Part shown: positions 1 to 61,686 of the stretch, in pieces
Layout: every line of letters starts with the position of its first letter
How positions within the stretch are numbered: the stretch's first letter is position 1
Origin: a bacterium
Lineage (GTDB): Bacteria; Patescibacteriota; Minisyncoccia; Moranbacterales; UBA2206
Direction of reading: 5' to 3'
Assembly: GCA_029567195.1 (NCBI GenBank)
Contig: JAKQLJ010000023.1
Location: forward strand, 4,626 to 68,625
DNA length: 64,000 nucleotides
Made by a program: the position numbers and the translations under genes
The notes under the pieces: model-generated
The model's database searches: none
What the model saw: the letters and a program-made list of their open reading frames with translations, nothing else
Told to the model about the DNA's origin: nothing

Positions 1-100
1 ATTTACCCTGTTAAATACTGATATTTATAGGGTAAAATTTAACTAATAAGTTTATTCTTTTTTAGGCTTATTGGAGCATAAAACAGAATTATTTAACAGG

Positions 101-490: not shown

Positions 491-494
491 AAAA

Positions 495-643
495 CGTCAT
501 CCTGAGGATTTTGACATTACGTCGGAGGACGAAGGATCTATAAATGGTTATTTATAGTTTTGCAATAAATCGTAAAACTATTGATAACACAAAATAGATC
601 CTTCACTCTTCTCCGCCAATGGCGGATTGAGTTCAGGATGACG
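495..643. repeat. GC-rich composite palindromic intergenic repeat (MITE/REP-like), copy 1
   Basis: Terminal inverted repeats are cgtcatcctga (495-505) and tcaggatgacg (633-643). Subterminal inverted repeats are gaaggatcta (531-540) and tagatccttc (595-604). It fills the rrf2-iscS spacer, and its termini resemble the copy at 1912-2040. Confidence 0.7.
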
Positions 644-657
644 GGGTATTAATTTTT

Positions 658-1911
658 ATGAAACAAATATATCTCGACCACGGGGCGACGACCCCGGTTG
701 ATAAAAAAGTTTTAGCTTCTATGCTTCCGTATTTCAGCGAGAAATACGGCAATGCCATGTCACTTCATGAATTTGGCAATGAAGCCAATAAAGCTTTGGA
801 AAAAGCCAGAAAAAGCGCGGCTGATTTTTTTGGTGCTGATAAAGAAGAAATAATCTTTACTTCTGGCGCGACTGAATCCAATAATTTGGTGGTAAAAGGC
901 GTATTGCGAGCATATTATGATAATATTCGTTCCAATTTGCCTAAAATTAGTTCTAATTTGCGAGTTCCTCATATCATCACTACCGCCTTTGAACATCATT
1001 GTGTTTTGGATGCTTGCAAAGCAGCTCAGAAAGAAAATTTGGCCGAAGTGACTTTCATAAAACCCAACAAGGAAGGAATAATTTTCACGGAAGATGTAAA
1101 AAAGGCGATAAAGCCCAACACCATTTTGGTTTCAGTTATGTATGTCAACAACGAAATCGGCACTGTCCAGCCAATCGCGGAAATCGGAAAATTAATTAAG
1201 AATTACAATTCCAAATTACCAATTACTAATTACAAATTACTTTTTCATACTGATGCAACACAGGCGATAAATTATTTTAATTGTAATGTCAATAAGCTCG
1301 GCGTGGATTTGCTTTCTATGTCAGCTCATAAAATTTATGGCCCGAAAGGCGTTGGCGCCCTTTATATCAGAAAAGGAACAGCTATAAAGCAGGTGATGGA
1401 CGGTGGAGGGCAGGAAGGCGGAAAAAGAGCCGGCACGCACAATGTGCCGGGAATTGTCGGGCTTGGAACAGCAATATCAATGATCAATGATCAAGGAACA
1501 AAAAATAAGAAAAATGAAATATTAAAATTAAGAAATTATCTGATAGATAAAATTTTGAAAGAAATTCCGAAAACAAGACTTAACGGATCGAAAATAAAAC
1601 GTTCGCCGAATAATGCCAATTTTTCTTTTCAAAATGTAGAAGGGGAGAGTCTCCTTATAATGCTGGATGCGGAAGGAATTGCGGCTTCTACCGGCAGCGC
1701 CTGTTCGTCCGGCTCTCTTTCGCCGTCCCATGTGCTTTTGTCTCTCGGAATGAAAGCGGAAGAAGCTCATGGATCGCTCAGATTGACGCTGGGGAAAAAC
1801 ACGACCAAGAAGGAAATAGAATATACCATTTCAAAATTAAAAAACATTATCGAAAAACTCAGGAAAGTTTCAGGGAATGTTTTGGGGGATTATTACCAAG
1901 CTAAAAAATGA
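658..1911 (+). CDS. iscS: Cysteine desulfurase (class V aminotransferase, IscS/NifS type)
   Basis: IYLDHGATTP N-terminus, PLP-lysine motif SAHKIYGPKGVGALY, and active-site loop STGSACSS. It is flanked by the Rrf2 and IscU genes. Confidence 0.92.
   Translation: MKQIYLDHGATTPVDKKVLASMLPYFSEKYGNAMSLHEFGNEANKALEKARKSAADFFGADKEEIIFTSGATESNNLVVKGVLRAYYDNIRSNLPKISSNLRVPHIITTAFEHHCVLDACKAAQKENLAEVTFIKPNKEGIIFTEDVKKAIKPNTILVSVMYVNNEIGTVQPIAEIGKLIKNYNSKLPITNYKLLFHTDATQAINYFNCNVNKLGVDLLSMSAHKIYGPKGVGALYIRKGTAIKQVMDGGGQEGGKRAGTHNVPGIVGLGTAISMINDQGTKNKKNEILKLRNYLIDKILKEIPKTRLNGSKIKRSPNNANFSFQNVEGESLLIMLDAEGIAASTGSACSSGSLSPSHVLLSLGMKAEEAHGSLRLTLGKNTTKKEIEYTISKLKNIIEKLRKVSGNVLGDYYQAKK
1201..1240. repeat. 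AT-rich heptamer tandem array inside iscS
   Basis: aattaca attccaa attacca attacta attacaa attac. Period 7, about 5.5 units, encoding NYNSKLPITNYKL between conserved blocks. Confidence 0.75.
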
Positions 1912-2040
1912 CGCGAAGCGTCATCCTCGCGCCCGCCTGCCGGCGAGGCAGGTAGGCGGGGATCCAATCTGGTTTATTAAATTTATACACTAGATTCCCG
2001 CTGGAGTTTACCCCGCGCTTGATGCGGGGCGGGAATGACA
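1912..2040. repeat. GC-rich composite palindromic intergenic repeat, copy 2
   Basis: Begins ..cgtcatcctcgcg and ends ..gcggggcgggaatgaca. Contains the hairpins cccgcctgcc/ggcaggtaggcggg and ccccgcgcttgatgcgggg and the central motif ctagattcccgc shared with copy 3 at 20816-20913 (copy 4 at 38371-38490 carries only a divergent ctggattccc). Confidence 0.75.
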
Positions 2041-2073
2041 AATATAATTATTAATTTAAACATCACATAATAT

Positions 2074-2454
2074 ATGTATTCAAAAAAAGTTTTAGAACAT
2101 TTTACCCGTCCTCATAATCAGGGCGTGATAAAAAAAGCCGACGGTGTCGGCATTGTGGGCAATCCCACCTGCGGTGATTTAATGAAAATTTATATCCGTG
2201 TCAAAAAAGACAAAACAAAAGGGGAAGTGATAAACGATATAAAGTTTGAAACTTTGGGTTGCGCTTCGGCTATCGCTACCTCTTCCATGATTACCGATTT
2301 AGCCAAAGGGAGGACTCTTCATGAAGCAATGAAAATTTCTCGTGATGACGTAGCGGATGCCTTGGAAGGTTTGCCGCCAATCAAAATGCATTGCAGCAAT
2401 TTGGCGGCTGATGGGCTTCATGCGGCCATCAAAGATTATAAGAATAAAAAGTAA
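2074..2454 (+). CDS. iscU: Fe-S cluster assembly scaffold IscU/NifU-like
   Basis: Conserved Cys motifs GNPTCGD, LGCASAIATSS and MHCSNLA. Confidence 0.93.
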   Translation: MYSKKVLEHFTRPHNQGVIKKADGVGIVGNPTCGDLMKIYIRVKKDKTKGEVINDIKFETLGCASAIATSSMITDLAKGRTLHEAMKISRDDVADALEGLPPIKMHCSNLAADGLHAAIKDYKNKK

Positions 2455-2568
2455 AAAATAGGGAAGACTGGTTAGCTTAAAAAAAGTGAGAAGAAGTCGC
2501 AATATTTATACAAATAAAAATAAAATTTTTTAAAAATTTTATTTCTTCATTGTAATATATAATGATCC

Positions 2569-2860
2569 AGGCATCGAAAAGGGAAGATGGATAATTTTTT
2601 ATTTGTTTTTGCCTTTTGATTCCGGTTCCTGTTTTTAAGGGAAATGCCGGGAGGGGAGGAAATATGAACAGTGTCGCACAATGTATCTTTTACGACATTT
2701 GGCATAACCTCATGGGTCTTTCAAAAGAACCCGTCCTGGGATACATCTATGTATCCCTTACTCCCTTCATTTCTCGCAGAACCTAATTTTGGAAGCCGTT
2801 TCGGAAACGCTATAGGCTGTTATGCTCCCGCGTCGTTAGGTCATCGCTATTTTTTTTAAA
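2569..2860 (+). ncRNA. Candidate structured RNA of unknown class (alternatively the mRNA of a 43-aa ORF at 2664-2795)
   Basis: A G+C-richer block sits in an extremely AT-rich spacer. A tataat box lies at 2557-2562. A 21-nt long-range pairing joins 2639-2659 (gggaaatgccgggaggggagg) to 2755-2775 (cccttactcccttcatttctc). Local hairpins lie at 2714-2732 and 2738-2757. The block ends in a T-run at 2851-2858, and no + strand gene follows. Confidence 0.3.
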
Positions 2861-2960
2861 AATATTTTTTAAATTTTTTCAAAAATAATTTTTTAAAATA
2901 TAAATATAATAGTTTTTATTTAATACAAAATACTCCGAGTAAAATATTTCTTGAAAATAA

Positions 2961-2994
2961 AAAAACAACCAGAATAACAGCGGTTGTTTTTTTT
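2961..2994. terminator. Bidirectional intrinsic terminator
   Basis: aaaaacaacc-agaataacagc-ggttgtttttttt. The stem is flanked by an A-run and a T-run. It lies downstream of the minus-strand gene 3053..4384. Confidence 0.7.
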
Positions 2995-3052
2995 ATCTAT
3001 TTTTATGTTTTGAATGTTTGGTTAATACCAAGGCTATATTACCTCTCCCCTA

Positions 3053-4384
3053 TTATTTGTATATAATCATTTGGTCAATGGCGACCTTACTGTCAACTCC
3101 GATTTTTCCCACTAATGATTTAGAAGTGCCAAGATAGAGATTGGAACCAAAATATGGATCATGAACAATATAATCTTTTTTATCTTTGCCGGTGACCACC
3201 ACATAGTGTCCTCCTCGGCCGTTGGTTTTTTTAATGTAAACTATGACAGGATTGCCTTTTTTAATTTCGCTGTCAATAGTGGACCATTTTATATTGCCAT
3301 GGGAAACGGAAGAAGAAAGGGAAATTCCAGGACTCCAGGTGGCTGGCCATTTGATAAGATCATAATAAAATATTTTTTCGCGGCACATTTTTCCCGGATC
3401 AGTGCTAGCTCCGTTTTTTTTGAAAACCATAGCGACAGAAGTGACGGCACAACCATAATCTTTCATAAGAGAAGAAGAATTTCCGATTTTTTTATTTCCC
3501 CAACGTGAATCTTTTTGGGAAAAATACCAGGAAGTAGAAGCCAAATTATCTTTGGGTTTGGGATATTTGCTTACACTGGCGCTGACTTCATCCAGGTTGC
3601 CGGCTTCGGAAAAATTGAAAAGTTCCTGTTTTTGTTCCTCCACTCGAGCCAAGAGTCCGCGGTATTTTTCTTCCTCTCCCTGTGTTTGAGTGAGAAGATT
3701 TTGCTTTTGCCGCTCGGTATATTGGAGGTCAGCTTTTTTATCCGCCAATTCTTCTTTGAGATCTAAATTTTTCTGCATATCTTCGTCCAACTCTTTTTTG
3801 TCGTTTTCCAGTTCGCTTTTTGATTTTTCAATATCTGATAGAATTTCGGAAACTTTCGCTCCGGATTGTTCCAGATAATCTGATTGACTGAGAGTTTCGG
3901 AAAAATCCTTATTTATGATTACCAGCCCTAAAATTCCCTGCTGGTCGTATTCATAATATGATTGCATTAGTCCGGTAAGAATCTTTTTCTGCACATTTAT
4001 GTTCGCTTCTTTTTCTTTTATTGCTTCCTCTAAGTTTTCAATTCTTTTAGTCAGTTCATCCAATTCTTTTTGAGTCAGCTGAAGCTTGCTGTGAGTCTCC
4101 ATTTTTTCCTGATTTATTGAGTTCACCTGAGCAGCCAAAGTGCTTTCTTGTTTGTCTTTGAGTTTTATAATGCTTTCATACATTTCCGCTTTTTTGTCCA
4201 ATTTCTTGCAGTCTTCCTCGCAGTCATCCTGCTTATCTTCATCATCAGGATAACTGGCCTTGCATTGATCCTCGCAGGATTCGGCTTGGGTATAATTTTT
4301 TTCCAGAGTAAGAAAAGCCATGGCTAAAATGCCGAGGAATATCAATGAAAATAAGCTTATTTTATTTTTATCTTTTTTTATCAT
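3053..4384 (-). CDS. Secreted/membrane-anchored coiled-coil protein with a C-terminal C39-like cysteine peptidase domain (PcsB-like architecture, putative cell-wall hydrolase)
   Basis: N-terminal TM/signal segment, then about 200 aa of heptad-rich Glu/Lys/Leu sequence. The C-terminus YFSQKDSRWGN...DYGCAVTSVAMV...GGHYVVVTG...VHDP resembles the Peptidase_C39_2 Cys/His arrangement. Confidence 0.6.
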   Translation of the reverse strand: MIKKDKNKISLFSLIFLGILAMAFLTLEKNYTQAESCEDQCKASYPDDEDKQDDCEEDCKKLDKKAEMYESIIKLKDKQESTLAAQVNSINQEKMETHSKLQLTQKELDELTKRIENLEEAIKEKEANINVQKKILTGLMQSYYEYDQQGILGLVIINKDFSETLSQSDYLEQSGAKVSEILSDIEKSKSELENDKKELDEDMQKNLDLKEELADKKADLQYTERQKQNLLTQTQGEEEKYRGLLARVEEQKQELFNFSEAGNLDEVSASVSKYPKPKDNLASTSWYFSQKDSRWGNKKIGNSSSLMKDYGCAVTSVAMVFKKNGASTDPGKMCREKIFYYDLIKWPATWSPGISLSSSVSHGNIKWSTIDSEIKKGNPVIVYIKKTNGRGGHYVVVTGKDKKDYIVHDPYFGSNLYLGTSKSLVGKIGVDSKVAIDQMIIYK

Positions 4385-4392
4385 TTTTTATC

Positions 4393-5946
4393 CTATAAAG
4401 ACAAGGCTTTTTTTATTCTTTTTATGCTTTCCTCTTTACCCAGGACCCAGGCTACTTCAAAAGGCGAAGGTGATTTCTGCTGCCCGGTGAGAGCGGCCCG
4501 AAGTGGCCAAAGCAAATCTCCTTTTTTATCTCCGGCTGCTTCCACTAGCAGTTTCTCCAAATTTTCTTTAGTCCACAAAGGATCAGAAATTTCAGTTAAA
4601 ATATCCAATGATTTTTGAAGCGATGCTTTCAAATTTTCATCGCTCATTTCTTTCCAACGCAAAAGATTTTTATCATAATCTATGTCGCTTACAAAAAAGA
4701 AAATATTGTTCTCCCCCACTCCGGATAAATTTATCAGGCGATCGCGTTCAACGGTTAAGACTTTTTTAATATAATCTCCTTTTTCTTTGTTGTTCTTTCT
4801 TTGTTGTTCTTTGTCCCAGATATTATAAAATTCTTTCTGTCGCCAAAATTCCAATGATCGTTCATAGAGTTCATCAATGGATAATTTTTTGATCCATTGG
4901 GAATTTATCCAGTCGAGTTTTTGGATATCAAATACCGCGCCGCCTTTGTGGACGCAGGAAAGATCAAATTTTTGAGTGAGTTCTTCGAGGGTAAAAATTT
5001 CCTGAGTCGATCCTTCGCCTGGATTCCACCCTAAAAATATTACAAAATTAATGATAGCTTCCTTTAGATAACCTTTCTTGATGTAGTCTTCCACAGCCAC
5101 GTCACCTTGTCTTTTGGAAAGTTTTGATCTGTCGGTGTTGAGAAGCAGGGGCACATGGGCGAATTGCGGCGGTTCCCAGCCAAAATATCTATATAGAATC
5201 AAGTGTTTGGGAGCGCTGGAAAGCCATTCTTCTCCGCGGATGACGTGGGTTATTTTCATTTCGTGGTCGTCAACGACATTGGCCAAATGATAGGTGGGAT
5301 AGCCGTCGGATTTCAAAAGCACCTGGTCGTCAACAAGATTAGTATCAAATTTTACTTTTCCTCTTATAATATCATCAAATTCAATCATTTCATCTTTGGG
5401 CATCTTGAGGCGGATAGTATAAGGGCAATTACTTTTAAGTTTTTTATTCACTTCTTCGGGAGTTACGTTCCGCAGACAATATTGGTCGTAGATTGGCGGC
5501 TGTTTCTTGGCCTGTTGATCACGTCTCATCTCTTCCAGTCTTTCCGGTTCGCAGAAACAATAATAAGCGTGGCCGTCTTTCACCAATGTTTCCGCATATT
5601 TTTTATAAACTTCCAGTTTTTCTGATTGGATGTATGGTCCATACTCCCCTATCTCTATGATTCCTTTATAAGATTTTGAATCATAGAATTTGGAATTTGG
5701 AATTTGGAATTTGGAATCTTTTTGAAAAACTCCTTCTGTATAATTAACATCAGCCCAATTTAAAACGTTTATCAAACTTTCAAGCGCGCCCGTAACAAAT
5801 CTTTTTTGATCAGTATCTTCTATGCGCAACACAAAATCACCGTCATTTTTTTTGGCGAATAAGTAATCATATAAAGCGCTTCGGAAATTTCCGATATGCA
5901 TAAATCCGGTTGGTGATGGCGCAAATCTAACGCGTGGTTTTGTCAT
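4393..5946 (-). CDS. gltX: Glutamyl-tRNA synthetase
   Basis: RFAPSPTGFMHIGNFRSAL (HIGH region), LRIEDTD, and KLSKRQG (KMSKS region). Confidence 0.93.
   Translation of the reverse strand: MTKPRVRFAPSPTGFMHIGNFRSALYDYLFAKKNDGDFVLRIEDTDQKRFVTGALESLINVLNWADVNYTEGVFQKDSKFQIPNSKFYDSKSYKGIIEIGEYGPYIQSEKLEVYKKYAETLVKDGHAYYCFCEPERLEEMRRDQQAKKQPPIYDQYCLRNVTPEEVNKKLKSNCPYTIRLKMPKDEMIEFDDIIRGKVKFDTNLVDDQVLLKSDGYPTYHLANVVDDHEMKITHVIRGEEWLSSAPKHLILYRYFGWEPPQFAHVPLLLNTDRSKLSKRQGDVAVEDYIKKGYLKEAIINFVIFLGWNPGEGSTQEIFTLEELTQKFDLSCVHKGGAVFDIQKLDWINSQWIKKLSIDELYERSLEFWRQKEFYNIWDKEQQRKNNKEKGDYIKKVLTVERDRLINLSGVGENNIFFFVSDIDYDKNLLRWKEMSDENLKASLQKSLDILTEISDPLWTKENLEKLLVEAAGDKKGDLLWPLRAALTGQQKSPSPFEVAWVLGKEESIKRIKKALSL
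5686..5717. repeat. Heptamer tandem array (gaatttg x4.5) inside gltX
   Basis: gaatttg gaatttg gaatttg gaatttg gaatc. On the coding strand it encodes SKFQIPNSKF within an insertion between conserved blocks. Confidence 0.85.
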
Positions 5947-6066
5947 TCTTTATGAACTACTAATTTCGTAAAAATATACGAATCTTATAGTATTATTTTA
6001 TTTTCATATTAAACTTTTTTCTCATTTCAACATGTTCTTTTTCAACTAATTTTATGTTTAAATTAT

Positions 6067-6783
6067 TCATCTATTTAAAATTATTTTTATTGGAAAAACA
6101 ACTACTGCGTTCCATATCCTTTTTAGCCTTTTAGGCTGAAGTATCAAGCGCCAGAGCCATTCAAGTCCCATTAGGCGCCAAAAACATGGAGCGCGGCGGA
6201 CATATCCCGTGAGAAAATCAAAACTTCCACCTACTCCCATGGCTAGCCTTATTCTATCATTATTTTGTCTTGCGATAAAGGTTTCCTGATAAGGCGCTCC
6301 AAAATTGCAAAAAACTATCTGGCAGCTGGAGCTCATGATCTGATATGCGCTGTCTTTTGTGTCTATGTCGTCCCCGTCGACTATCAAATTCGGATAAAAT
6401 TTAGCGATAGCATTCCGCGTTTCTTCCCAAGTACTGAGTCCGTCTTTTTTTGCTGCCAAAAATATGCTCAATTTTTCCTTGTTGGCCAGTCTGATAATCT
6501 TTTCCATAAGGTCGGCTCCGGCTATCCGGCATTTGAGGTGTCTGCCATATCGCCAAAAAGCAAATTTTATTCCCATGCCGTCAGCAATGTTTAGATCGCA
6601 GCTGTTCAGTATATTCCTGAATTCCTGGTTTTTCTGGGCTTCCATGATAAACTCCGGATTGATAGTGGCGATTTGATGGAATTTTGGTTCAGACAAAAAA
6701 ATTTTAATTTTTTCCAACGTTTCTTTTTTGCTAAAATCGTCAATTTTTATTCCCAAAATATCAAATTTGCTTCTTGTGTCCAT
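6067..6783 (-). CDS. WecG/TagA/CpsF-family glycosyltransferase
   Basis: TINPEFIMEA...NIADGMGI...GVGGSFDFLTG...RAP...GLEWLWRL..QPKRLKR is the characteristic family pattern. Confidence 0.85.
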   Translation of the reverse strand: MDTRSKFDILGIKIDDFSKKETLEKIKIFLSEPKFHQIATINPEFIMEAQKNQEFRNILNSCDLNIADGMGIKFAFWRYGRHLKCRIAGADLMEKIIRLANKEKLSIFLAAKKDGLSTWEETRNAIAKFYPNLIVDGDDIDTKDSAYQIMSSSCQIVFCNFGAPYQETFIARQNNDRIRLAMGVGGSFDFLTGYVRRAPCFWRLMGLEWLWRLILQPKRLKRIWNAVVVFPIKIILNR

Positions 6784-6811
6784 ATGTGGTTATAAGGAAA
6801 TATATTATATT

Positions 6812-7207
6812 TCACTGAAGGATGTTTTTTAAAAGTCTATGTGCGGGGTATTTGTCGAGCAAGCTTTTTTCAAAATTCTTATTTCCAGTTTTTGTTCGCT
6901 TAAGGCAATTTTCAATCCATTTTTCATAGTCCTTTTTTCCATTATGCAGCCATTGATCGGTTTTAGTGATTGTTTGATTGCTTGCCTTGACTCGTTTTCT
7001 TATGGTTTCATAGCTGTCACCGCCTAGAAGCATTTTGGCAATTTGCAAGCGCCTAGCAAACATCAAAGTTTCACTGGGAGTAAGCAGTCCGATAAAAAAA
7101 TCAATCACCTCTTTCTTTGATTTTAAATTGGAAATTGTATTATAAAAATAACCGGTTATCTCCTGCTTTTCCTTTTGGCTTATCAAATGTGTTTTTACTT
7201 TTGACAT
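6812..7207 (-). CDS. TrpR/YerC-YecD family DNA-binding protein
   Basis: LLTPSETLMFARRLQIAKMLLGGDSYETIRKRVKASNQTITKTDQWL matches the YerC/TrpR helix-turn-helix pattern. The ATG at 7207 (MSKVKTH) is preferred over the 20-codon upstream extension in the ORF track. Confidence 0.7.
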   Translation of the reverse strand: MSKVKTHLISQKEKQEITGYFYNTISNLKSKKEVIDFFIGLLTPSETLMFARRLQIAKMLLGGDSYETIRKRVKASNQTITKTDQWLHNGKKDYEKWIENCLKRTKTGNKNFEKSLLDKYPAHRLLKNILQ

Positions 7208-7360
7208 TTTTATGGAATTATTTTTTCTTTCGCATCCATATAACCACATATGGACACAGCAGAACAATAATACGAAAATACGAAGAGTGTCTGTCTGATG
7301 GAAAAAATTAAAAAATGAAAAAGGGAGATATTGTTTTTTGCGTAAAAATATTTACAAAAT

Positions 7361-7903
7361 TTATTTTAACGGACAAGACTCAATGAGGGCATATTCGCTT
7401 TCCCCTTCTCCAAAACCGCTAGCCATTATGTCTACTGTTTCTGCGGTCACAAAAAGGGAAAATTTTTCAGAAATTTCCGGTTTTTCCGTCAAGTCTTCCC
7501 ACTTATGCTTTCTTATTCTTCCCAGGGTTATATGGGGGCGGAAAGATTTTTTGGGCGCCCGGAAAATGTCCAGTTCTTTTTCAATTTTTTCGTATAAATT
7601 TTTCAATTCTTCGCTGGGAGCGCCGGTAAGCCAGATCATTTTTGGATCATCTTTTTCCGGCGCTAATTCGATACGGTCAAATTCCAAATCAAAAATATTT
7701 TCTTCTTGAGCCGCTATTTTTACCTTTTCACAAACATCTTTGGTCGTTTCGTCGTCAATATAGCCCAAAAAGAACAAGGTAATGTGAAAATTGGCTTCTT
7801 TTACCCACTTCACCGGCAAATCAGACCATTTTTCTATTGTCTTTGTGAGCTCTTTTTTCGCTCTTTCGGGGATATTTATGGATATAAAAATTTTACGCTT
7901 CAT
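7361..7903 (-). CDS. thpR: RNA 2',3'-cyclic phosphodiesterase / 2'-5' RNA ligase (2H superfamily)
   Basis: Two H-x-T/S motifs: FHITLFFLG and PHITLGRI. Confidence 0.85.
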   Translation of the reverse strand: MKRKIFISINIPERAKKELTKTIEKWSDLPVKWVKEANFHITLFFLGYIDDETTKDVCEKVKIAAQEENIFDLEFDRIELAPEKDDPKMIWLTGAPSEELKNLYEKIEKELDIFRAPKKSFRPHITLGRIRKHKWEDLTEKPEISEKFSLFVTAETVDIMASGFGEGESEYALIESCPLK

Positions 7904-7984
7904 AGGATAAATAATAGCTTAAAACGGTCATTTTGGCAAAAAATAAAGGGCGATCAGCTAAATGTGCTAATCGCCTCGGGAAAT

Positions 7985-8113
7985 TCAGTATTTATCGGGA
8001 TTTATAAAGTGGCCTTTGGGCCAGCGAAGACGCCAAATCAATTTACCGAATGACCATAAAAATACACCAAGCAAAATACCGGATAAAACACTGATAATTT
8101 TATAAAAATCCAT
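7985..8113 (-). CDS. Small (42 aa) membrane protein, absent from the ORF track
   Basis: On the minus strand, gaggaggatgaatATG gives a strong SD 6 nt upstream of the ATG. Product is MDFYKIISVLSGILLGVFLWSFGKLIWRLRWPKGHFINPDKY, with one hydrophobic helix. The stop is tga (tca at 7985-7987). Confidence 0.5.
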   Translation of the reverse strand: MDFYKIISVLSGILLGVFLWSFGKLIWRLRWPKGHFINPDKY

Positions 8114-8205
8114 ATTCATCCTCCTCTTTCAACGTGTGAATTTCTTTATAAAAACAAGGATTTAGCCTTTTGCCTTTTATTTAAGGAGCTAATACAATAT
8201 AGCAT

Positions 8206-10272
8206 ATGGCCAAAGAAAAGAAAAGTGACAAATTTATCATTGATGTCGTGCCTTTGACGCGCATTCCCCTGACCCGTAATCAGTCTTTTTCGTATTTAAA
8301 TGATAAAAAACTGGCGCCGGGAACTTTGGTGTCTGTCCCGCTTTTCAGAAGGAAATTGGAAGGGATAGTTTTAGGCTCAAGGAGCGATTTTCATAGGCTG
8401 GGAAATATCGAACTCAAAAAAATAGATAAAATCATAGAAGAAAATTTTTTGACCGAGGAACAAATGAAATTGGCACAGTTTATCTCCGACTATTATATTT
8501 CTCCGCTCGGAATAGTGATGAAGGGGTTTGTACCAAAACGTCAAAAAAGAATTAAGAATTATGAATTAAGAATCGAGAATAAAAAAAAGAACATTATTTT
8601 GACAGCTGAACAGCAGAACGCCGTAAATTTAATTTCAAATTTCAAATTTAAAATTTCAAATTTTCTTTTATATGGTCTTTCCGGATCGGGAAAAACGGAA
8701 GTATATATCCATTCGATTATAAAATTAAAAGAAAAAGAAAAAAACTTACAGTTTCTGGTGTTGGTTCCGGAACAAACATTGACGCCGCAAGCTATGGAAC
8801 GCTATGGGGCATATTTTAGCCCTGATGAAATGGTGCTTCTAAGCAGTAATGTTACAAAAGGCCAATATTGGTCAAACTGGCAGAAAATCAAATCGGGCGA
8901 AGCAAAGATAATAATCGGTACCAGAATGGCTGTTTTTGCGCCGTTTAAAAAATTAGGCATGGTTGTGATTGATGAAGAGCAGGATATGTCATATAAGCAA
9001 TGGGATATGAATCCGAGATATGATGCCAGGACTTTGGCTGAAAAAATGGGCGAACTGTACCAGTGTCCCGTGGTTTTCGGTTCGGCTACGCCGAGACTCG
9101 AAAGTTATTATAAAGCCATGAACAAAAATATTAAACTGGTTGAATTGCCCGAATTAGACTTGAAAAATGTTGATTCGCAATTAGTAATTAGTAATTTGGA
9201 AAAAAAGACATCCCGATTACCAATTACCAATAACCAATTACGTTCTATAGAGTTGGTGGATATGCGAAAAGAAAAATGGCAGAAGCCGAAAAATTATTCC
9301 TCTATTTCCAAAAAACTCCAAGGCGAAATTGCCTATGCTCTTAAAAACAAGCAACAAGCCGTTCTTTTCATTAATCGCCAAGGAATGAGCAATTTTTCCG
9401 TGTGTGAGAATTGCAAAACCGTGCTTAGGTGTCCGCGATGTGATCGGGCGCTTATCAAAAGCAACAAGGGAAATTACAAATGTGTTCATTGTGCCCATGA
9501 AACTTCCATTATTCCGGAATGTTCCAAATGTCATGGCATAGCCTTTAAAAACGTCGGACTGGGAACGCAAAAAGTAGAAAAAGAAATCAAAGATATTTTT
9601 CCGGGAGCGAAAATTTTACGCCTTGACAGCGAAGTGGCAAAAAAGAAAAACAGCCAAGAAGAAATTTATGAATCTTTTTCATCCGGTGCGGCGGATATTT
9701 TAATCGGGACACAGATGATTTCCAAGGGATGGGATTTGCCTAACGTTTCTTTAGTTGGTATTATAGATACAGATAATCTGTTTTCTATTCCGGATTTCAG
9801 CGCGGCTGAGAAAGCTTTTGATTATATTTTTCAAGTTTCCGGCAGAACAAGCCGACCTGATGCCAGATTTCCCGGCGTGGTGATCATTCAGACTTTTAAT
9901 CCGGAAAATAAAACAATAAAATGGGCGCAAAGTCGGGATTTTGAATCTTTTTTCAAAAAAGAATTGGAAGAAAGAAAAATTTTGTATCTTCCTCCGTACG
10001 GAAAAATTATTAAGCTCGTAATTCAAGATTTCAATTACAAAAAAGCGGCATCGGCGGCAAATGATGTTTTCAAGATGATTTGCAAACTGTCTTCCGAAAT
10101 TCAAGTGTCAGAACCTCAGGATGCATACGTATCAAAGATAAGAGGAAGATTTAAAAAACAAATCACAATAAAAATAAAATCAAAAAACAAAGCGGTTAAT
10201 AATTTGGTGAAAATATTGAAATCTCTTCCTAATGGGTGGATTATCGATGTTGATCCTATCAGTATTATATAA
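8206..10272 (+). CDS. priA: Primosomal protein N' (replication restart helicase)
   Basis: Walker A LSGSGKTEVY, DEEQD box, Cys-rich zinc motifs CENCKTVLRCPRCDRAL..YKCVHCAHE..CSKCHG, and helicase C motifs. Confidence 0.92.
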   Translation: MAKEKKSDKFIIDVVPLTRIPLTRNQSFSYLNDKKLAPGTLVSVPLFRRKLEGIVLGSRSDFHRLGNIELKKIDKIIEENFLTEEQMKLAQFISDYYISPLGIVMKGFVPKRQKRIKNYELRIENKKKNIILTAEQQNAVNLISNFKFKISNFLLYGLSGSGKTEVYIHSIIKLKEKEKNLQFLVLVPEQTLTPQAMERYGAYFSPDEMVLLSSNVTKGQYWSNWQKIKSGEAKIIIGTRMAVFAPFKKLGMVVIDEEQDMSYKQWDMNPRYDARTLAEKMGELYQCPVVFGSATPRLESYYKAMNKNIKLVELPELDLKNVDSQLVISNLEKKTSRLPITNNQLRSIELVDMRKEKWQKPKNYSSISKKLQGEIAYALKNKQQAVLFINRQGMSNFSVCENCKTVLRCPRCDRALIKSNKGNYKCVHCAHETSIIPECSKCHGIAFKNVGLGTQKVEKEIKDIFPGAKILRLDSEVAKKKNSQEEIYESFSSGAADILIGTQMISKGWDLPNVSLVGIIDTDNLFSIPDFSAAEKAFDYIFQVSGRTSRPDARFPGVVIIQTFNPENKTIKWAQSRDFESFFKKELEERKILYLPPYGKIIKLVIQDFNYKKAASAANDVFKMICKLSSEIQVSEPQDAYVSKIRGRFKKQITIKIKSKNKAVNNLVKILKSLPNGWIIDVDPISII
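8549..8580. repeat. Heptamer tandem array inside priA (block 1)
   Basis: gaattaa gaattat gaattaa gaatcga gaat, encoding NYELRIEN. Confidence 0.8.
8631..8665. repeat. Heptamer tandem array inside priA (block 2)
   Basis: aatttca aatttca aatttaa aatttca aattttc, encoding SNFKFKISNF. Confidence 0.85.
9178..9198. repeat. Heptamer tandem array inside priA (block 3)
   Basis: caattag taattag taatttg, encoding QLVISNL. Confidence 0.75.
9215..9241. repeat. Heptamer tandem array inside priA (block 4)
   Basis: gattacc aattacc aataacc aattac, encoding LPITNNQL. This is the same aattacc-type unit as in iscS 1201-1240 (LPITNY). Confidence 0.8.
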
Positions 10273-10275
10273 TTT

Positions 10276-10725
10276 ATGAACCTACCTATTCTTACCTATC
10301 CCAACGATATCCTAAGAAAAAAAGCTGAAGAAATTAAGGATCCTAAAGATCCGGAAATAAAACAGCTTATTTTAGATATGATTGAGACAATGGAAAAAAG
10401 CGGCAACGCTCTTGGTCTGGCGGCTCCTCAAGTGGGAAAAATGGTGCGTCTTTGCATTATTAAACTGGAAGGAAAAACCCATATCCTTGTTAATCCGGTG
10501 ATTAAATCAAAATCCATAAGAAAGGAAATGGCAGAAGAAGGTTGTCTTTCTTTTCCGGGAAAATTCATTCCCATTAAAAGATCTAAGAAAGTTACGGTAA
10601 AATTGGTTAACAGGCACGGAGAAAAAATTACTATCAAGGCTGAAGGACTCCTTGCCCGCGCTTTCCAGCACGAAATTGATCATCTGGACGGCTTGCTTAT
10701 TATTGACAAGGAAAATAAAAATTAA
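10276..10725 (+). CDS. def: Peptide deformylase
   Basis: Motifs GLAAPQVG, EGCLSFPG and QHEIDHLDG. Confidence 0.95.
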   Translation: MNLPILTYPNDILRKKAEEIKDPKDPEIKQLILDMIETMEKSGNALGLAAPQVGKMVRLCIIKLEGKTHILVNPVIKSKSIRKEMAEEGCLSFPGKFIPIKRSKKVTVKLVNRHGEKITIKAEGLLARAFQHEIDHLDGLLIIDKENKN

Positions 10726-20815: not shown

Positions 20816-20913
20816 TGTCATTCCCGTGTAAACGGGAATCCAGTAAATAAGCCAGGATTTCAGACTAGATTCCCGCCTGCCTGCCAGTAGGCATGGCTTT
20901 CGCGGGAATGACA
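20816..20913. repeat. GC-rich composite palindromic repeat, copy 3
   Basis: tgtcattcccgtgtaaacgggaatcca...ctagattcccgcctgcctgccagtaggcatggctttcgcgggaatgaca. Terminal inverted repeats are tgtcattcccg and cgggaatgaca. Confidence 0.8.
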
Positions 20914-50768: not shown

Positions 50769-52589
50769 TTATTTTTTAAGGACGGCTAAAAAAGTCTCTG
50801 AAGGTATGGCCACTCTGCCTACATTTTTCATTTTTTTCTTTCCTTTTTTCTGCTTTTCCAACAGTTTTCTTTTTCTGGTCACATCTCCCCCATAAAGCTT
50901 GGCAGTAACGTCTTTTCTAAAAGCGTTGATGGTTTCCCGGGCTATTATTTTTCCGCCGATAGCCGCTTGAAGGGCAATTTGAAAATTTTGGCGTGGAATA
51001 GAATTTTTTAATTTTTCCACCACTCTTTTTCCTTCAGAAAAAGCATTTTCCCTCGGAATAATTCGGGAAAAAGCGTCCACTTTTTCTTCCGCCACTAAAA
51101 TATCCAGCTTTACCAGATCATAAGGACGATAAGAAGATATTTCATAATTCATAGAAGCATAGCCGGAAGAAGCGCTTTTTAAATCATCATGAAGATTAGT
51201 AATGACATCCGTCAAAGGACAATTAAATTTAATGATCATTCTTTCCGTATCTATATATTCCGTATCCAGATATTGGGCTCTGGTGTTATTCATCACTTCC
51301 ATAATAGCGCCCAGATATTGAGAAGGAGAAATGATGTCCAATTTCACAAAAGGTTCGGAAATTTCTTCGATAACTGACGGGTCAGGCAGTTCAGAAGGGG
51401 AATAAATCTGGATTGAGTTGCCGGTTTTCATTTTTACCTCGTAAACTACGCTAGGCGTAGTGATTGTCGGGCTGATTTCAAATTCCCGCTCCAGCCTCGA
51501 TTGGATTATTTCCAGATGAAGAAGTCCCAAAAATCCACAGCGAAATCCCCGCCCGAGAGCTGAATTTGATTCCGGTTCAAAAGTAAAAGCGGCATCATTA
51601 AGTTTTAGTTTTTCCAAAGCATCCCGCATAAAGTTATAGTCATCGCCTTCAATTGGATAAAATGAAGCGTAAACCATTGGCCGCACTTCTTTGTAGCCTG
51701 ATAGCGGTTGAATATTGTCTTCTGTTTTTGATATTTGATTTTTGATTTTTGAAATTGTTATGGTGTCCCCTACCCGGCAATATTCAACGCTCTTGAGCCC
51801 GGTAGCGATATATCCAATCTCTCCCATCTGAAGTTTTTTGGTTTTCTGAAGATCAGGCTTGAAATAACCGACTTCTATCACGTCGCTTTTCATTTTTGTG
51901 GCCATCATGGTAATTTTTTCTTCTGCTCCTATTTCTCCATCAATAATCCGAACATAGGCCAAAACTCCTTTATAAGTGTCGTATTTTGAATCAAAAACCA
52001 AAGCTCGAAGCGGCTTTTCTTTTTTTCCTTTGGGCGATGGGATTTTTTCCACAATACGCTCCAAAAGCTTTTCCACGCCTAACCCGGTTTTTCCGGAAAC
52101 TTCCAAAATTTCCTCTTCCTGACAACCTAGAATATGGATTATTTCGTTTTTAGTTTTTTCTATATTGGCATTGGGAAGATCAATTTTATTAACTACTGGA
52201 ATAATTTCCAGATTATTTTCAATGGCTTGATACAGATTGGCCAATGTCTGAGCTTGCACGCCTTTGGTGGCATCAACTAAAAGCACTGCTCCCTCCACAG
52301 CCGCCAGTGACCTGGAAACTTCATAACCAAAATCCACATGTCCCGGAGTATCAATAAGATTCAGAATAAATTCTGAATCTGAATTCGAGATTCTTGACCG
52401 ATAGACCATCCGGACTGGCTGCATTTTTATGGTTATCCCTCTTTCTCTTTCCAGATCCATAGTATCCAAAAGTTGTTCTTTCATCTTGCGTTTTTCTATC
52501 GTTCCGGTAAATTCCAAAAGCCGGTCGGACAAAGTCGATTTTCCGTGGTCAATATGGGCGATTATGCAAAAATTTCTGATGTTATTCAT
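50769..52589 (-). CDS. lepA: Elongation factor 4 (LepA)
   Basis: IRNFCIIAHIDHGKSTL, DTPGHVDF and NKIDL GTPase motifs, and the LepA C-terminal domain ..KLYGGDVTRKRKLLEKQKKGKKKM. Confidence 0.95.
   Translation of the reverse strand: MNNIRNFCIIAHIDHGKSTLSDRLLEFTGTIEKRKMKEQLLDTMDLERERGITIKMQPVRMVYRSRISNSDSEFILNLIDTPGHVDFGYEVSRSLAAVEGAVLLVDATKGVQAQTLANLYQAIENNLEIIPVVNKIDLPNANIEKTKNEIIHILGCQEEEILEVSGKTGLGVEKLLERIVEKIPSPKGKKEKPLRALVFDSKYDTYKGVLAYVRIIDGEIGAEEKITMMATKMKSDVIEVGYFKPDLQKTKKLQMGEIGYIATGLKSVEYCRVGDTITISKIKNQISKTEDNIQPLSGYKEVRPMVYASFYPIEGDDYNFMRDALEKLKLNDAAFTFEPESNSALGRGFRCGFLGLLHLEIIQSRLEREFEISPTITTPSVVYEVKMKTGNSIQIYSPSELPDPSVIEEISEPFVKLDIISPSQYLGAIMEVMNNTRAQYLDTEYIDTERMIIKFNCPLTDVITNLHDDLKSASSGYASMNYEISSYRPYDLVKLDILVAEEKVDAFSRIIPRENAFSEGKRVVEKLKNSIPRQNFQIALQAAIGGKIIARETINAFRKDVTAKLYGGDVTRKRKLLEKQKKGKKKMKNVGRVAIPSETFLAVLKK
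51725..51752. repeat. Heptamer tandem array inside lepA
   Basis: tttttga tatttga tttttga tttttga on the + strand. On the coding strand it encodes IKNQISK(T) within a loop insertion. Confidence 0.75.
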
Positions 52590-60510: not shown

Positions 60511-61608
60511 TCAATTTTTATGCTTTATATACTCTTTTTCCACGTAGTCTTTAATTTTATTCTTAAAAGCGCTTTTGTCAAATTTTCTAGCCTTTTCCCT
60601 GATAGAAACCGAATCAAACTCGATTTTTTCAAATCTCCCAACTGCCGCCACGATGTCCTCCGCTGTTTGATTGTCAAAGAAAATCCCATCCTTATTTTCC
60701 TCGATATGTTCCGGGATGTCCCCGCCTCGAAAAGCTATAAGTGGCCGTCCTGAAGCCAAAGCTTCAATAGCTACAATGCCGAAATCTTCTTCTTGCGGAA
60801 AGATAAAAGCCCGGCATTGGGAATAATATTTAGCCAAATCTTCGTCCGGCACCCGGCCCAAAAATTCAATGGTAGGACCGGCAATTTTTTGAAGCCTTTT
60901 TAACTCCGGTCCTCGACCGATGATTTTTAGCGGCAATTTCAGCCGGTTAAAAGCTTTTATGGCAATATCAAATCTTTTGTAGGCAATAAGCCGGCCGACC
61001 ATTAAAAAATAATTTCCCGTTTTTTCATTTACAAAAAAATCATCAAAATTTACCGGCGGATGGATTATTTCACTTTCCTTTTTATAATATTTTTTAATTC
61101 TCTTGGCAACAAATCGGGAATTGGCGATAAATCGATCCACTCTTTCGGCGCTGATTCTGTCCCAAAGCCGCAAATAATTCATTGCCAGAGGAACCAATTT
61201 CTTGATAAACCCCGGAAAATAAAAATCCTGGGTGTATTTATGGCAATCATCCCAGGCATAACGCATTGGCGTGTGCATATAACAAATATGAAGCGTTTCC
61301 GGACCGGTAATGACGCCTTTGGCAAAACTGGAAGAATCAGAAAGGACGATGTCATATTTGGAAAAATTAAATTGTTCGATGGCAATGGGCATAACTTGCG
61401 GAAATATACGGTGTTTACTGGAAGCAAAAGGAAATTTTTGGATAAAAGAAGTCCGGATATCCTTGTTCTCCAAAACTCCATGCATCATTTTTTTGTTATA
61501 CACCAAAGTATAAATCGGCGCGTCCGGATAAAGTTCGCAAAAACACTCCAGCACTCTTTCAGCGCCTCCATATTGAACCAAATAATCATGAACCAAAGCA
61601 ATCTTCAC
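60511..61608 (-). CDS. Family 4 glycosyltransferase
   Basis: (V/M)KIALVHDYLVQYGGAERV is the typical family N-terminus, reached from the GTG at 61608. The ORF track extends to a TTG at 61644, and there is an ATG at 61638. The C-terminal motif is PQEEDFGIVAIEALASGRPLI. Confidence 0.85.
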   Translation of the reverse strand: MKIALVHDYLVQYGGAERVLECFCELYPDAPIYTLVYNKKMMHGVLENKDIRTSFIQKFPFASSKHRIFPQVMPIAIEQFNFSKYDIVLSDSSSFAKGVITGPETLHICYMHTPMRYAWDDCHKYTQDFYFPGFIKKLVPLAMNYLRLWDRISAERVDRFIANSRFVAKRIKKYYKKESEIIHPPVNFDDFFVNEKTGNYFLMVGRLIAYKRFDIAIKAFNRLKLPLKIIGRGPELKRLQKIAGPTIEFLGRVPDEDLAKYYSQCRAFIFPQEEDFGIVAIEALASGRPLIAFRGGDIPEHIEENKDGIFFDNQTAEDIVAAVGRFEKIEFDSVSIREKARKFDKSAFKNKIKDYVEKEYIKHKN

Positions 61609-61686
61609 GTAACACGTAACACCTAACACATAACACATTGGCAATTTTAGTTGGGATGTTATGCGCTATGTGCTATGTGATACGTG
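61606..61686. repeat. Imperfect inverted repeat whose arms are heptamer tandem arrays
   Basis: Left arm: cacgtaa cacgtaa cacctaa cacataa cac (61606-61637). Right arm: gttatgc gctatgt gctatgt gatacgt g (61658-61686). It lies between the stop of 61690..63114 and the start region of the GT4 gene. Confidence 0.8.

Follow-up and report, generated by a model that had tools for sequence, protein, structure and literature searches.

The priA gene of a Candidatus Moranbacteria genome, encoding the primosomal protein N', contains four tandem arrays of heptanucleotide units, all of them in frame. The gene is located in the window, i.e. the whole 64-kb stretch of DNA that was analysed, and its open reading frame (ORF) is unbroken despite the four arrays, both in the ORF list and in the translation. 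The product was identified as PriA from the Pfam domains PriA_3primeBD, DEAD/ResIII, Helicase_C and PriA_C and from a match to solved PriA structures at E = 3e-86, and it is 100% identical to an entry named "primosomal protein N', Candidatus Moranbacteria". The four arrays, as well as similar ones in iscS, gltX and lepA, had been described in a first-pass annotation of the window; Tandem Repeats Finder (TRF) and a codon view recover them at those places (Table 1), and translation returns the peptides which had been quoted for priA (NYELRIEN, SNFKFKISNF, QLVISNL and LPITNNQL).

Table 1. Period-7 features of the window, with the TRF calls for the priA arrays
Feature	Coordinates	Strand	Unit and copies	Peptide	TRF call or remark
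iscS-like class-V aminotransferase gene, array	1201..1240	+	AATTACA x5.9	NYNSKLPITNYKL (KLPITNYKL)	
iscS-like gene, second, shorter array	1472..1494	+	CAATGAT x3.4	ISMINDQ	
gltX array	5686..5717	-	CAAATTC x4.6 (sense strand)	DSKFQIPNSKF	100% matches
priA	8206..10272	+			688 aa ORF, host of arrays 1 to 4
priA array 1 (site 1)	8547..8580	+	AAGAATT-type	RIKNYELRIEN	8547-8573, AAGAATT x3.9, 90% matches; reaches 8580 if read as 14-nt period, x2.4
priA array 2 (site 2)	8631..8665	+	AATTTCA x4.7	SNFKFKISNF	8631-8663, AATTTCA x4.7, 92% matches
priA array 3 (site 3a)	9178..9198	+	(C/T)AATTAG x3	QLVISNL	9179-9196, AATTAGT x2.6, 100% matches
priA array 4 (site 3b)	9215..9241	+	ATTACCA x3.7	LPITNNQL	9216-9241, ATTACCA x3.7, 89% matches
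lepA array	51725..51756	-	ATCAAAA-type (sense strand)	ISKIKNQISK	
Intercistronic hairpin	61606..61679	-	inverted heptamer arrays as arms (61660-61679, 61606-61636)		TRF, RNA fold

In the protein, array 1 corresponds to the linker joining the N-terminal DNA-binding region to helicase lobe 1, and arrays 3 and 4 share the linker from helicase lobe 1 to lobe 2; both linkers (residues 114-125 and 320-345, respectively) have pLDDT below 50 in the AF2 model and are devoid of secondary structure. Array 2 spans the loop that follows the Q-motif helix, together with the beginning of the beta strand preceding Walker A, modelled as a loop at residues 145-151 followed by a strand at 152-157. With the ORF intact, low pLDDT at sites 1 and 3 and a loop at site 2, the arrays of PriA occupy permissive surface loops. 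The third unit of array 1 is ATGAATT, which yields TAT (Tyr) in place of the in-frame TAA expected from a pure repeat. No RNA family was found at the arrays in Rfam.

The other genes of the window which carry arrays are affected in a similar way. The longer array of the iscS-like gene is 82% identical to priA array 4 over 34 nt and 90% complementary to priA array 3, which bears out, together with its peptide, the earlier remark that priA and iscS share a unit. The identity of gltX is given by the Pfam family tRNA-synt_1c, and the array in lepA was also detected by a protein-only detector. Overall, the window contains at least eight different heptamer units, with no dominant single family. In priA, iscS, gltX and lepA the arrays are located mid-gene, and not in the promoter or 5' part of surface or host-interaction genes.

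Period-7 excess in the window and in related genomes

Among exact arrays of at least 2.4 copies in the window, seven have a period of 7 nt and none has a period between 8 and 15 nt. At a TRF score of at least 30, 12 period-7 arrays are present against 3.4 +/- 1.9 in Markov-3 simulations, and the occurrence of four within one 2-kb gene, given 12 per 64 kb, has a Poisson probability of 7e-4. On a broader scale, the priA loci of 80 related Moranbacteria (1.38 Mb) comprise 158 period-7 arrays with a TRF score of at least 40, where 0.8 are expected from Markov-3 shuffles; this excess of about 200-fold is specific to period 7, the next periods being 8 (34 arrays) and 9 (43 arrays). No strong period-7 array was found in 100 kb of E. 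coli, which served as control. Period-7 arrays are a lineage-wide feature of Moranbacteria which is unexplained by base composition, as the first-pass annotation had maintained for the genome. Tandem, head-to-tail short units exceeding compositional expectation in both TRF and Markov counts qualify them as microsatellites.

The species of the window is represented by four independent assemblies (ENA, two JGI samples and Logan), originating from the metagenomes ERZ795059, JGI 3300010355 and 3300025871, and SRR5007225. These consensus sequences carry an identical PriA and, over all the arrays they cover, are 99.99-100% identical and agree to the base, with no length variation; there is therefore no indication of phase variation. 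Copy-number variants between strains were likewise absent from the results of a metagenome pattern scan which allowed variable gaps. The hypothesis of a phase-variable contingency locus was rejected on the basis of the constant unit number in the four consensus assemblies and of the truncation of PriA which follows a change of one unit.

Given the GC content of about 38% and the commonness of short A/T-rich repeats in AT-rich genomes, the arrays could be put down to chance low complexity, or else to an artefact of assembly. This explanation is refuted, and retains practically no credibility, in the face of the magnitude and period specificity of the excess, the existence of GC-rich units such as CGCGAAA, CGCTCCA and ACGCCAT, the agreement of the four assemblies, and the presence of the pattern across 80 metagenome-assembled genomes from many studies, with ORFs always intact. 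A shared anchor of the units, namely ATT-N4 or a 4-nt palindrome core, was considered by eye inspection only and discarded, since many units, e.g. ACGCCAT, AACCCAC and AAATCCG, possess neither.

Two thirds of the arrays (146 of 222) lie wholly within ORFs. Their density outside ORFs is about 2.7 times that inside, and coding sequence is therefore tolerated rather than preferred.

Array sites, unit turnover and the reading frame

Between 29% and 54% of 79 PriA orthologues, depending on the linker, have a heptamer array at the sites concerned, and each of the three linkers has 19-23 different units. Site 1 is occupied in 28 of the 79 (21 units) and site 2 in 43 (23 units, mostly ending on conserved K-F or x-Y codons); these figures dispose of the suggestion that the arrays are insertions private to this genome. 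Recurrence at orthologous sites is likewise found in iscS, gltX and a WecG-like gene: in iscS the site of the longer array is occupied in 10 orthologues with nine different units and that of the shorter one in 17 orthologues with 11 units, and the gltX site bears ENFKFKISNFKL in the orthologues L042 and L046. Sites are shared even between species with saturated synonymous sites. It appears from these alignments that array sites are stable across the lineage while their units turn over. Literature searches for in-frame heptamer arrays in CPR/Patescibacteria returned no description of them.

In the PriA orthologues, the array linkers are the sole hypervariable and length-variable stretches, and control segments are constant in length. 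Peptides found at one site in different species are unrelated, e.g. SHVPCSMFHVPCF, NLKLKIKNLKF and SAPRSTLHAPR, and the protein-level conservation in distant orthologues which would have spoken against a repeat process is absent. Between PriA pairs at 70-80% identity, array identity is flat over the three codon positions (0.62/0.63/0.70), whereas the flanks show 0.86/0.90/0.69. This flat pattern, together with interruptions located where stops would arise, supports the view that the repeats are a property of the DNA rather than of the protein. Since the unit length cannot be divided by 3, each unit is read in a different frame from the one before, so that all three frames are used, and the peptide therefore repeats every seven residues and resembles low complexity.

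Selection at the protein level for linkers which are flexible or heptad-like and have a certain required length, with the 7-nt period as a by-product, is compatible with the location of the arrays in predicted-disordered inter-domain linkers, with the greater length of array-bearing linkers, which exceed array-free ones by some residues on average, and with the A-rich sense strand (47% A), which encodes the hydrophilic residues K, N, T, Q and S. However, a 21-nt repeat maintained for the protein would have no 7-nt period inside it, different species have chemically unrelated peptides at one and the same site, substitutions feature no codon-position pattern, and the arrays are denser in intergenic DNA. 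Furthermore, many PriA orthologues work with short, array-free linkers. Protein-level selection is thereby largely refuted and must be considered highly improbable.

The sequence of the arrays drifts at a roughly neutral rate once ascertainment is allowed for: in close pairs, the array identity of 0.90 equals the expectation from neutral change in one lineage. A first pass, in which arrays at 91-94% identity were compared with four-fold sites at 62-81%, had suggested conservation above neutrality, and this signal was gone after a flank-controlled, codon-position and ascertainment-aware analysis. The proportion of identical units at one site declines with rising PriA divergence, from 47% through 7% and 4% to 2%; in the different-site control they amount to 0-0.3% in the three more divergent bins and to 12% in the closest one (at least 80% PriA identity). 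The latter value reflects the sharing of one unit across sites by related genomes. Mismatches between relatives are phase-matched within the unit in 13 pairs, against 5.0 +/- 2.0 expected (P about 0.001), and a switch of the unit over the whole array, AAGTCAA vs TGATCAA, is seen at iscS site 2.

The consequences of unit gain and loss in priA were simulated. The addition or removal of one unit truncates PriA within 4-27 codons, in agreement with the frameshift which had been anticipated for such changes, whereas with three units the ORF stays open at 695 or 681 aa. The same simulation bears on programmed frameshifting. A -1 frameshift site requires a slippery heptamer of the form X_XXY_YYZ in frame, as well as an alternative frame that is productive; the only candidate is A_AAT_TTC in array 2, the other arrays misfit, and the +1 and -1 frames downstream of a one-unit change run into those early stops, so this possibility was rejected.

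Among close relatives, the length of coding arrays differs by 0 or +/-21 nt and that of non-coding arrays by +14 or -28 nt; the whole-unit changes seen, few as independent events, are -21 nt (L075 vs L063), +14 nt (L042 vs L046) and -28 nt (L054 vs L055). Arrays open in at least one frame, which make up 97% of the total vs 79% expected, have a length peak at 30-31 nt; those without an open frame on either strand, 11 in number, range from 29 to 82 nt and have no 31-nt mode. The mode therefore reflects the frame filter rather than the size of an element, and its interpretation as an element size or functional length was rejected. The action of a reading-frame filter on the arrays is thus supported. 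Linker lengths of relatives showed no clean quantisation into steps of 7 aa.

Origin of the arrays

The explanation which we favour, with a confidence somewhat above the middle of the scale, is that the arrays are heptanucleotide microsatellites renewed by slippage-type turnover, which survive in permissive linkers, in 21-nt steps and free of stops. Arrays would be generated throughout Moranbacteria genomes, in genic and intergenic sequence alike, and constantly renewed as whole units are gained, lost and converted in a slippage-type process, slippage itself being the inferred component. Within genes, an array would pass selection only in a structurally permissive inter-domain linker, only if length is gained or lost in net steps of 21 nt (three units), and only if no frame of the unit gives a stop or, failing that, an interrupting substitution is fixed. 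A typical coding array would then comprise about 1.4 + 3 = 4.4 units, i.e. 31 nt. In turn, the unit would turn over and the array sequence drift, while permissive sites stay occupied across the lineage. The arrays would be tolerated, self-renewing repeat DNA which incidentally supplies linker sequence, and no function of the peptide or of the nucleic acid is proposed.

Several observations count against slippage. A single step cannot raise about 1.4 units to 4.4, and the single-unit intermediates would be null alleles of an essential gene. No new array was seen to arise among the related loci compared, and the 21-nt presence/absence cases which can be polarised (L063 vs L075, L058 vs L031) look like losses. 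The absence of length variation in the four assemblies, the lack of clean 7-aa steps in linker length and the scarcity of independent indels point in the same direction. Furthermore, L010 and L016, with only 60% PriA identity, carry an identical 34-nt array including its imperfection. The genome-wide process put forward in the first-pass annotation is retained for its lineage-wide extent and its dependence on the frame, but the four assemblies give no sign of hypervariability.

Local slippage also does not predict the reuse of one unit at unrelated loci of a genome. Identical units account for 8.5% of within-genome pairs vs 1.0% between genomes (permutation P = 0.001), and both L022 and L024 have CATGAAA arrays at four loci with unrelated flanks. 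Such reuse would allow for a mechanism of copying or templating, in which an ultra-small mobile element or a templated insertion would place genome-specific blocks of three heptamers (21 nt) at many loci; the GC-rich 21-nt palindromes of array linkers would then be a second cargo. Dedicated copying of this kind is regarded as unlikely, and the same low expectation applies to its broader form, i.e. a Moranbacteria mechanism, distinct from passive polymerase slippage, which writes 21-nt blocks and possibly palindromes genome-wide, including in essential genes. If true, it would represent a class of mobile or templated insertion that is both new and ultra-small.

The sharp modal array size of 31 nt and the secondary structures associated with the arrays are in line with copying. 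Inverted array pairs are about four times enriched (17 vs 4.4 expected), and several are located in intercistronic spacers, namely in the one separating iscS from iscU and behind the stop of priA; this last hairpin is missing in the window, where the gap between priA and def is 3 nt. In L051, and only there, two dispersed copies of a hairpin element of about 95 nt occur, and their heptamer-array arms share one internal imperfection. GC-rich palindromes of 21 or 30 nt are found in frame in array linkers, without target duplication, and in L004 a 21-nt hairpin replaces exactly the three heptamer units of its relatives. A targeting of the arrays by these palindromes was rejected, as the enrichment is only about 2-fold (8 vs about 4) and it is the linkers, not the arrays themselves, which are shared. 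If blocks are indeed written, the intercistronic heptamer-array hairpins may be the primary, possibly functional form.

However, arrays with the same unit have nothing in common beyond the periodic core, and defined ends, flanks and target duplications are consequently lacking. At PriA site 2 the unit is usually anchored on the local K-F or x-Y codons, for which multiplication in situ is a better fit than import. The 31-nt mode, as seen above, vanishes in non-codable arrays, and stop-free AT-rich heptamers form a restricted library (56% of heptamers per strand), so that unit sharing is overestimated. No candidate enzyme has come to light, short of a systematic scan of the genes in the window.

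Hairpins could also indicate functional nucleic-acid elements, in which RNA or DNA hairpins, or protein sites phased at 7 nt, would regulate mRNA stability, translation or replication, with the periodicity itself under selection. One case is the intercistronic hairpin of the window, located between a Bac_transf gene and a GT4 gene: its RNA fold reaches -35.2 kcal/mol (z = -5.8), and arm 2 includes AGGTG and the likely GTG start codon, thus covering the Shine-Dalgarno sequence and start of the next gene. The unit of priA array 3 is the reverse complement of that of array 4 except at one position, and the two form a weak hairpin (-14.6 kcal/mol, z = -2.5), which is imperfect in that each unit has one mismatch. 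The intercistronic position of several inverted pairs and the maintenance of the periodicity at shared sites while the sequence changes are also consistent with a function. On the other hand, arrays 1 and 2 were rejected as arms of one hairpin, their fold being weaker than shuffled sequence (z = +1.85). The many unrelated units per genome make a single sequence-specific binder unlikely, many orthologues have a single array or none per site, array nucleotides evolve near the neutral rate, and the post-priA hairpin is missing in the window. A functional element is therefore even more doubtful than copying, and slippage-type turnover in permissive linkers remains the preferred account.

Significance and comparison with known repeat systems

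To our knowledge, the accepted picture is that tandem repeats with a unit length not divisible by three are barred from coding sequence or act as on/off switches. Moranbacteria depart from it, as 7-nt arrays are kept inside essential genes at class-stable positions with units turning over. They provide a natural system for the dynamics of repeats under a strict three-unit frame constraint, and for the creation and renewal of protein linkers by DNA-level repeats in very small genomes, and they bear on the question of why bacteria favour 7 nt as the period of their long repeats. In practical terms, the arrays account for odd low-complexity inserts of CPR proteins and can lead alignments, structure predictions and gene calls astray; they also point to places in conserved proteins where insertions are tolerated, and could serve as fine-scale strain or lineage markers.

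The Rickettsia palindromic elements, attributed to Ogata and colleagues in 2000, are reportedly selfish DNA inserted in frame within protein-coding genes, and are said to measure about 100-150 bp and to be dispersed copies of one palindromic consensus. Like them, the Moranbacteria arrays are DNA-level repeats in conserved or essential genes, placed in surface loops, with the frame kept and the host protein functional; in the Rickettsia type, it is the surface-loop position and the keeping of the frame which make the repeats tolerable. The Moranbacteria inserts differ in being tandem arrays of about 31 nt with no consensus beyond the unit, and the GC-rich mini-palindromes of array linkers resemble the Rickettsia elements more closely than the arrays do. 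The hmw promoters of Haemophilus influenzae are phase-variable contingency loci with heptanucleotide repeats, and in both cases a change of unit number would switch expression or reading frame. Unlike such loci, the arrays are found mid-gene in essential housekeeping genes, not in surface or virulence genes, and show no copy-number differences in the four assemblies. Ribbon-helix-helix (omega-type) repressors bind 7-bp heptad operators, and HutP binds UAG-N4 repeats. Consecutive 7-bp heptads, both direct and inverted, are shared with the ribbon-helix-helix operators, but the arrays have no single heptad consensus and mostly lie in ORFs rather than promoters.

Heptanucleotides have been described as the commonest class of long simple sequence repeats (SSRs) in most prokaryotic genomes, for which a polymerase-linked slippage was proposed (Mrazek et al. 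2007, as related in PMC4679880 and PMC4692102), and about four units are commonest in the GGGNATC repeats of Xanthomonas and Nostoc (PMC4692102). The arrays resemble prokaryotic long SSRs (units of 5-11 nt) in their head-to-tail 7-nt units above chance, in the prominence of period 7 and in a commonest number of about four units. They differ in that two thirds lie in housekeeping ORFs, in frame, at orthologue-shared positions class-wide and with many changing units. The cyanobacterial STRR and Beggiatoaceae TAACTGA repeats are also heptamer arrays of lineage-restricted abundance, usually with 2-6 copies, and TAACTGA contains stop codons in every frame (PMC4679880). Some of them lie directly upstream of start codons, like the intercistronic hairpin of the window, but these families have one or few fixed units per genome and are essentially intergenic, whereas Moranbacteria have dozens of units, mostly translated.

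Borg elements feature fast-turnover nucleotide repeats in ORFs which give rise to disordered protein segments, with genome-specific repeat formation, and the units of all their in-ORF tandem repeats are divisible by three (PMC9879509). The creation of disordered segments by genome-specific nucleotide repeats within ORFs is common to both systems. In Moranbacteria, unlike in Borgs, the unit of 7 nt leaves only three-unit steps viable and gives a peptide with a period of 7 aa, read from three frames.

Abundance of heptamer arrays in the window and in related genomes

The window (GC ~38%) belongs to a Candidatus Moranbacteria bacterium (CPR/Patescibacteria), and the four period-7 arrays which the first-pass annotation had described in its priA gene are all recovered by Tandem Repeats Finder (TRF) and translate exactly into the peptides quoted for them. 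The arrays which it had placed in iscS, gltX and lepA are likewise present, in correctly identified genes. The first iscS array (1201-1240) has 82% identity with priA array 4, and its complementarity to array 3 of that gene is 90%.

Features of the window and of related priA loci (L-numbers; positions after a colon are those of the locus)
Feature	Position	Strand	Details
priA	8206-10272	+	688-aa PriA; PriA Pfam domains; solved PriA structures matched at E = 3e-86
priA array 1	8547-8573 (extends to 8580)		unit AAGAATT; TRF
priA array 2	8631-8663		unit AATTTCA; TRF
priA array 3	9179-9196		unit AATTAGT; TRF
priA array 4	9216-9241		unit ATTACCA; TRF
iscS array, first	1201-1240		period 7; TRF
iscS array, second	1472-1494		period 7; TRF
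gltX array	5686-5717		perfect, x4.6
lepA array	51725-51756		period 7; TRF
Mini-palindrome family in window	20875-20913, 38371-38429		intergenic; two copies, 39 nt, 95% complementary
Intercistronic hairpin	61606-61679	-	-35.2 kcal/mol, z = -5.8; arms are inverted heptamer arrays
RNase P RNA, bacterial class A	63148-63533	-	127.6 bits
GC-rich mini-palindromes, related loci	L029:10469-10485, L052:4191-4232, L004:10343-10359, L024:3333-3362, others		
Hairpin element of L051	L051:1142-1235, L051:6134-6224		~95 nt; two dispersed copies

That a non-chance process lies behind these repeats, as had been proposed, is borne out by their number. At a TRF score of at least 30, the window holds 12 period-7 arrays against 3.4 +/- 1.9 in Markov-3 simulations; among exact arrays with 2.4 copies or more, seven have period 7 and none has a period of 8-15, and the occurrence of four arrays within a single 2-kb gene has a Poisson P of 7e-4. 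In related genomes, 80 priA loci adding up to 1.38 Mb hold 158 period-7 arrays with a TRF score of at least 40 where 0.8 are expected, along with 34 arrays of period 8 and 43 of period 9, and a scan of 100 kb of E. coli K-12 returned no period-7 array. A protein-only detector of peptides encodable by 7-nt periodic DNA flagged 58 of 120 close PriA homologues, none of 120 shuffled controls and 8 of 150 more distant PriA representatives; taken with the counts, this places the phenomenon chiefly in this lineage.

The arrays are unevenly spread, with eight of the 12 in the window lying in the first 10 kb (1-10300; iscS, gltX and priA) and four in the other 54 kb (10300-64000), while among related loci PriA and IscS are the most array-rich families and Def and Fmt are almost devoid of arrays. 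The probable reason is that proteins differ in whether they have permissive linkers, a regional effect being the alternative. Within the species, the arrays covered by four other assemblies (ENA, two JGI samples and Logan) match those of the window at 99.99-100% identity, and a metagenome scan turned up no length variants; at the level of consensus sequences, these results together argue against a contingency locus. Two independent JGI contigs of the species, L082 and L083, both end at window position 5439 inside gltX, with 16-29 unmatched terminal bases each, a pattern that points to variation among strains or to a repeat, just past this position, that breaks the assembly.

Recurrent linkers in PriA and other proteins

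Period-7 arrays recur at the same three PriA linkers across 79 orthologues: at site 1 (array 1 of the window) in 28 orthologues with 21 distinct units, at site 2 (array 2) in 43 with 23 units, and at site 3 (arrays 3 and 4) in 23 with 19 units, some of them GC-rich (CGCGAAA, CGCTCCA, ACGCCAT). Recurrent sites are also found in a WecG-like transferase (one site; 17 arrays, 15 units), in IscS (two sites; 10 arrays with nine units and 17 arrays with 11) and in GltX (two sites), and the iscS and gltX arrays of the window lie at such sites. The array blocks are therefore not private to this genome, and the earlier interpretation is supported in part.

In an AlphaFold model of PriA built on 22 orthologues, arrays 1, 3 and 4 correspond to residues 114-125 and 320-345, which are without secondary structure and have pLDDT <50, and array 2 encodes loop 145-151 together with the initial residues of the strand preceding Walker A. 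The array-bearing stretches are the only hypervariable, length-variable parts of the orthologue alignment, and their peptides are not conserved between orthologues. Arrays 3 and 4 have almost the same unit in inverted orientation and fold into a hairpin that is weak (z = -2.5), each unit containing one mismatch; no pairing was found between arrays 1 and 2. Gain or loss of one unit in any priA array cuts PriA short within 4-27 codons, in agreement with the frameshift predicted beforehand, and a three-unit change keeps the reading frame open (695 or 681 aa). In array 1 a pure repeat would give an in-frame TAA, at which the third unit actually has TAT.

Turnover, length and origin of the arrays

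Of 222 arrays, 146 lie inside ORFs, although density is ~2.7 times higher outside them. A first impression that arrays are better conserved than synonymous sites was lost under controls. Close pairs have an identity of 0.90 in the arrays and 0.89 in the flanks, as neutral change in a single lineage would give, since one copy of each pair had been selected for being intact; in pairs at 70-80% PriA identity, array identity is 65% and shows no pattern by codon position, compared with the usual 0.86/0.90/0.69 in the flanks. Neither the peptide nor the nucleotides of the arrays are thus visibly constrained. Since an array of 31 nt that drifts neutrally would cease to be periodic well before PriA identity fell to 50-60%, periodicity must be renewed. 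Signs of such renewal are the mismatches between relatives that share unit phase (13 pairs against 5.0 +/- 2.0 expected, P ~0.001), changes of unit throughout an array, as at iscS site 2 (AAGTCAA versus TGATCAA), and the sharing of identical units at the same site, which falls from 47% at PriA identities of at least 80% to 7%, 4% and 2% as the bins become more distant, against 12% and then 0-0.3% in different-site controls, related genomes in the closest bin having the same unit across sites.

Between close relatives, array length in ORFs changes by 0 or +/-21 nt, inserted GC palindromes excepted, and outside ORFs by +14 or -28 nt. Locus L063, for instance, has AATTTAAAATT, and L075 has at that place the identical sequence plus 21 nt. 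Arrays with one or more open frames show a sharp length peak at 30-31 nt (four units + 3 nt), and the 11 closed in all six frames are spread over 29-82 nt; we read the 31-nt mode as a frame filter acting on ~1.4 units plus one three-unit step. On balance, and with moderate confidence, the arrays are regarded as a heptamer microsatellite that would renew itself at the DNA level and that selection would tolerate only as long as it lies in a permissive linker, changes in steps of 21 nt and carries no stop codon; no function of their own is proposed.

Slippage leaves several observations unexplained, and these keep alive a rival account, considered unlikely, in which arrays are made by a copy or templating mechanism. 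No array birth was seen among the relatives, the polarisable 21-nt differences all being losses. Units are reused at unrelated loci of one genome (identical in 8.5% of pairs, against 1.0% between genomes), as in L022, where CATGAAA arrays occupy four loci with unrelated flanks. L010 and L016 share an identical 34-nt array despite 60% PriA identity. Inverted array pairs are ~4 times enriched, and the dispersed repeat of L051 is a hairpin with heptamer-array arms. Finally, the same linkers carry GC-rich palindromes, 21 or 30 nt long and in frame, of which the one in L004 replaces exactly three heptamer units. Against the rival account, arrays with the same unit have no ends or flanks in common, units of PriA site 2 are anchored to conserved codons at that place, and stop-free heptamers are a restricted library. 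At priA site 2, L022 and L024 (91% identical in PriA) carry unrelated arrays, of AAAGCTA and GGAAATT type, within a patch of ~55 nt (L022:10400-10460, L024:10490-10545) in otherwise conserved flanks; the distant L003 and L050 have a patch similar to the one in L024, a pattern that hints at recombination of patches between lineages or at their repeated re-creation.

Neighbouring features and comparison with known repeats

The GC-rich mini-palindromes fall into families (CCTGCC-N5-9-GGCAGG, TCCGCC-N3-4-GGCGGA, TCCCGC..GCGGGA) and in related genomes, often in array-bearing PriA linkers, are in-frame additions within ORFs without target duplication. In the two L051 copies the arms, made of GATTTAA and TCTTAAA arrays, share the internal imperfection CGTACA, while the flanks are unrelated; the element has the look of a small mobile or duplicated one. 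The 3' arm of the intercistronic hairpin contains AGGTG and the probable GTG start of a downstream GT4 glycosyltransferase gene, so that the hairpin could block the start of translation. A GC ~48% island at 33200-35800 (38% elsewhere) contains small ORFs only, several with signal-peptide-like N-termini and some overlapping on both strands; no Rfam family was detected there except one weak, below-threshold sRNA match, and the island may be horizontally acquired. Cumulative GC skew peaks at ~34000-36000 and declines steadily thereafter, so that an origin or terminus of replication may lie within the window. No tRNA genes were found within the 64-kb window.

According to Mrazek et al. 2007, as relayed in PMC4679880 and PMC4692102, most prokaryotic genomes have heptanucleotides as their most abundant class of long SSR, the proposed cause is polymerase-linked slippage, and the SSRs found in genes have units that are multiples of three. 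Single-unit heptamer families (STRR, TAACTGA of Beggiatoaceae, GGGNATC of Xanthomonas and Nostoc) are essentially intergenic (PMC4679880, PMC4692102), and every in-ORF repeat unit of Borg elements is divisible by three (PMC9879509). Literature searches returned no published description of heptamer arrays lying in frame in genes of CPR bacteria, and both the cause of the 7-nt period and the reuse of units within one genome merit follow-up. The Moranbacteria arrays share the defining properties of SSRs; unlike known heptanucleotide SSRs, however, they are mostly coding and in frame in essential genes, and their sites persist across the class while their units turn over.
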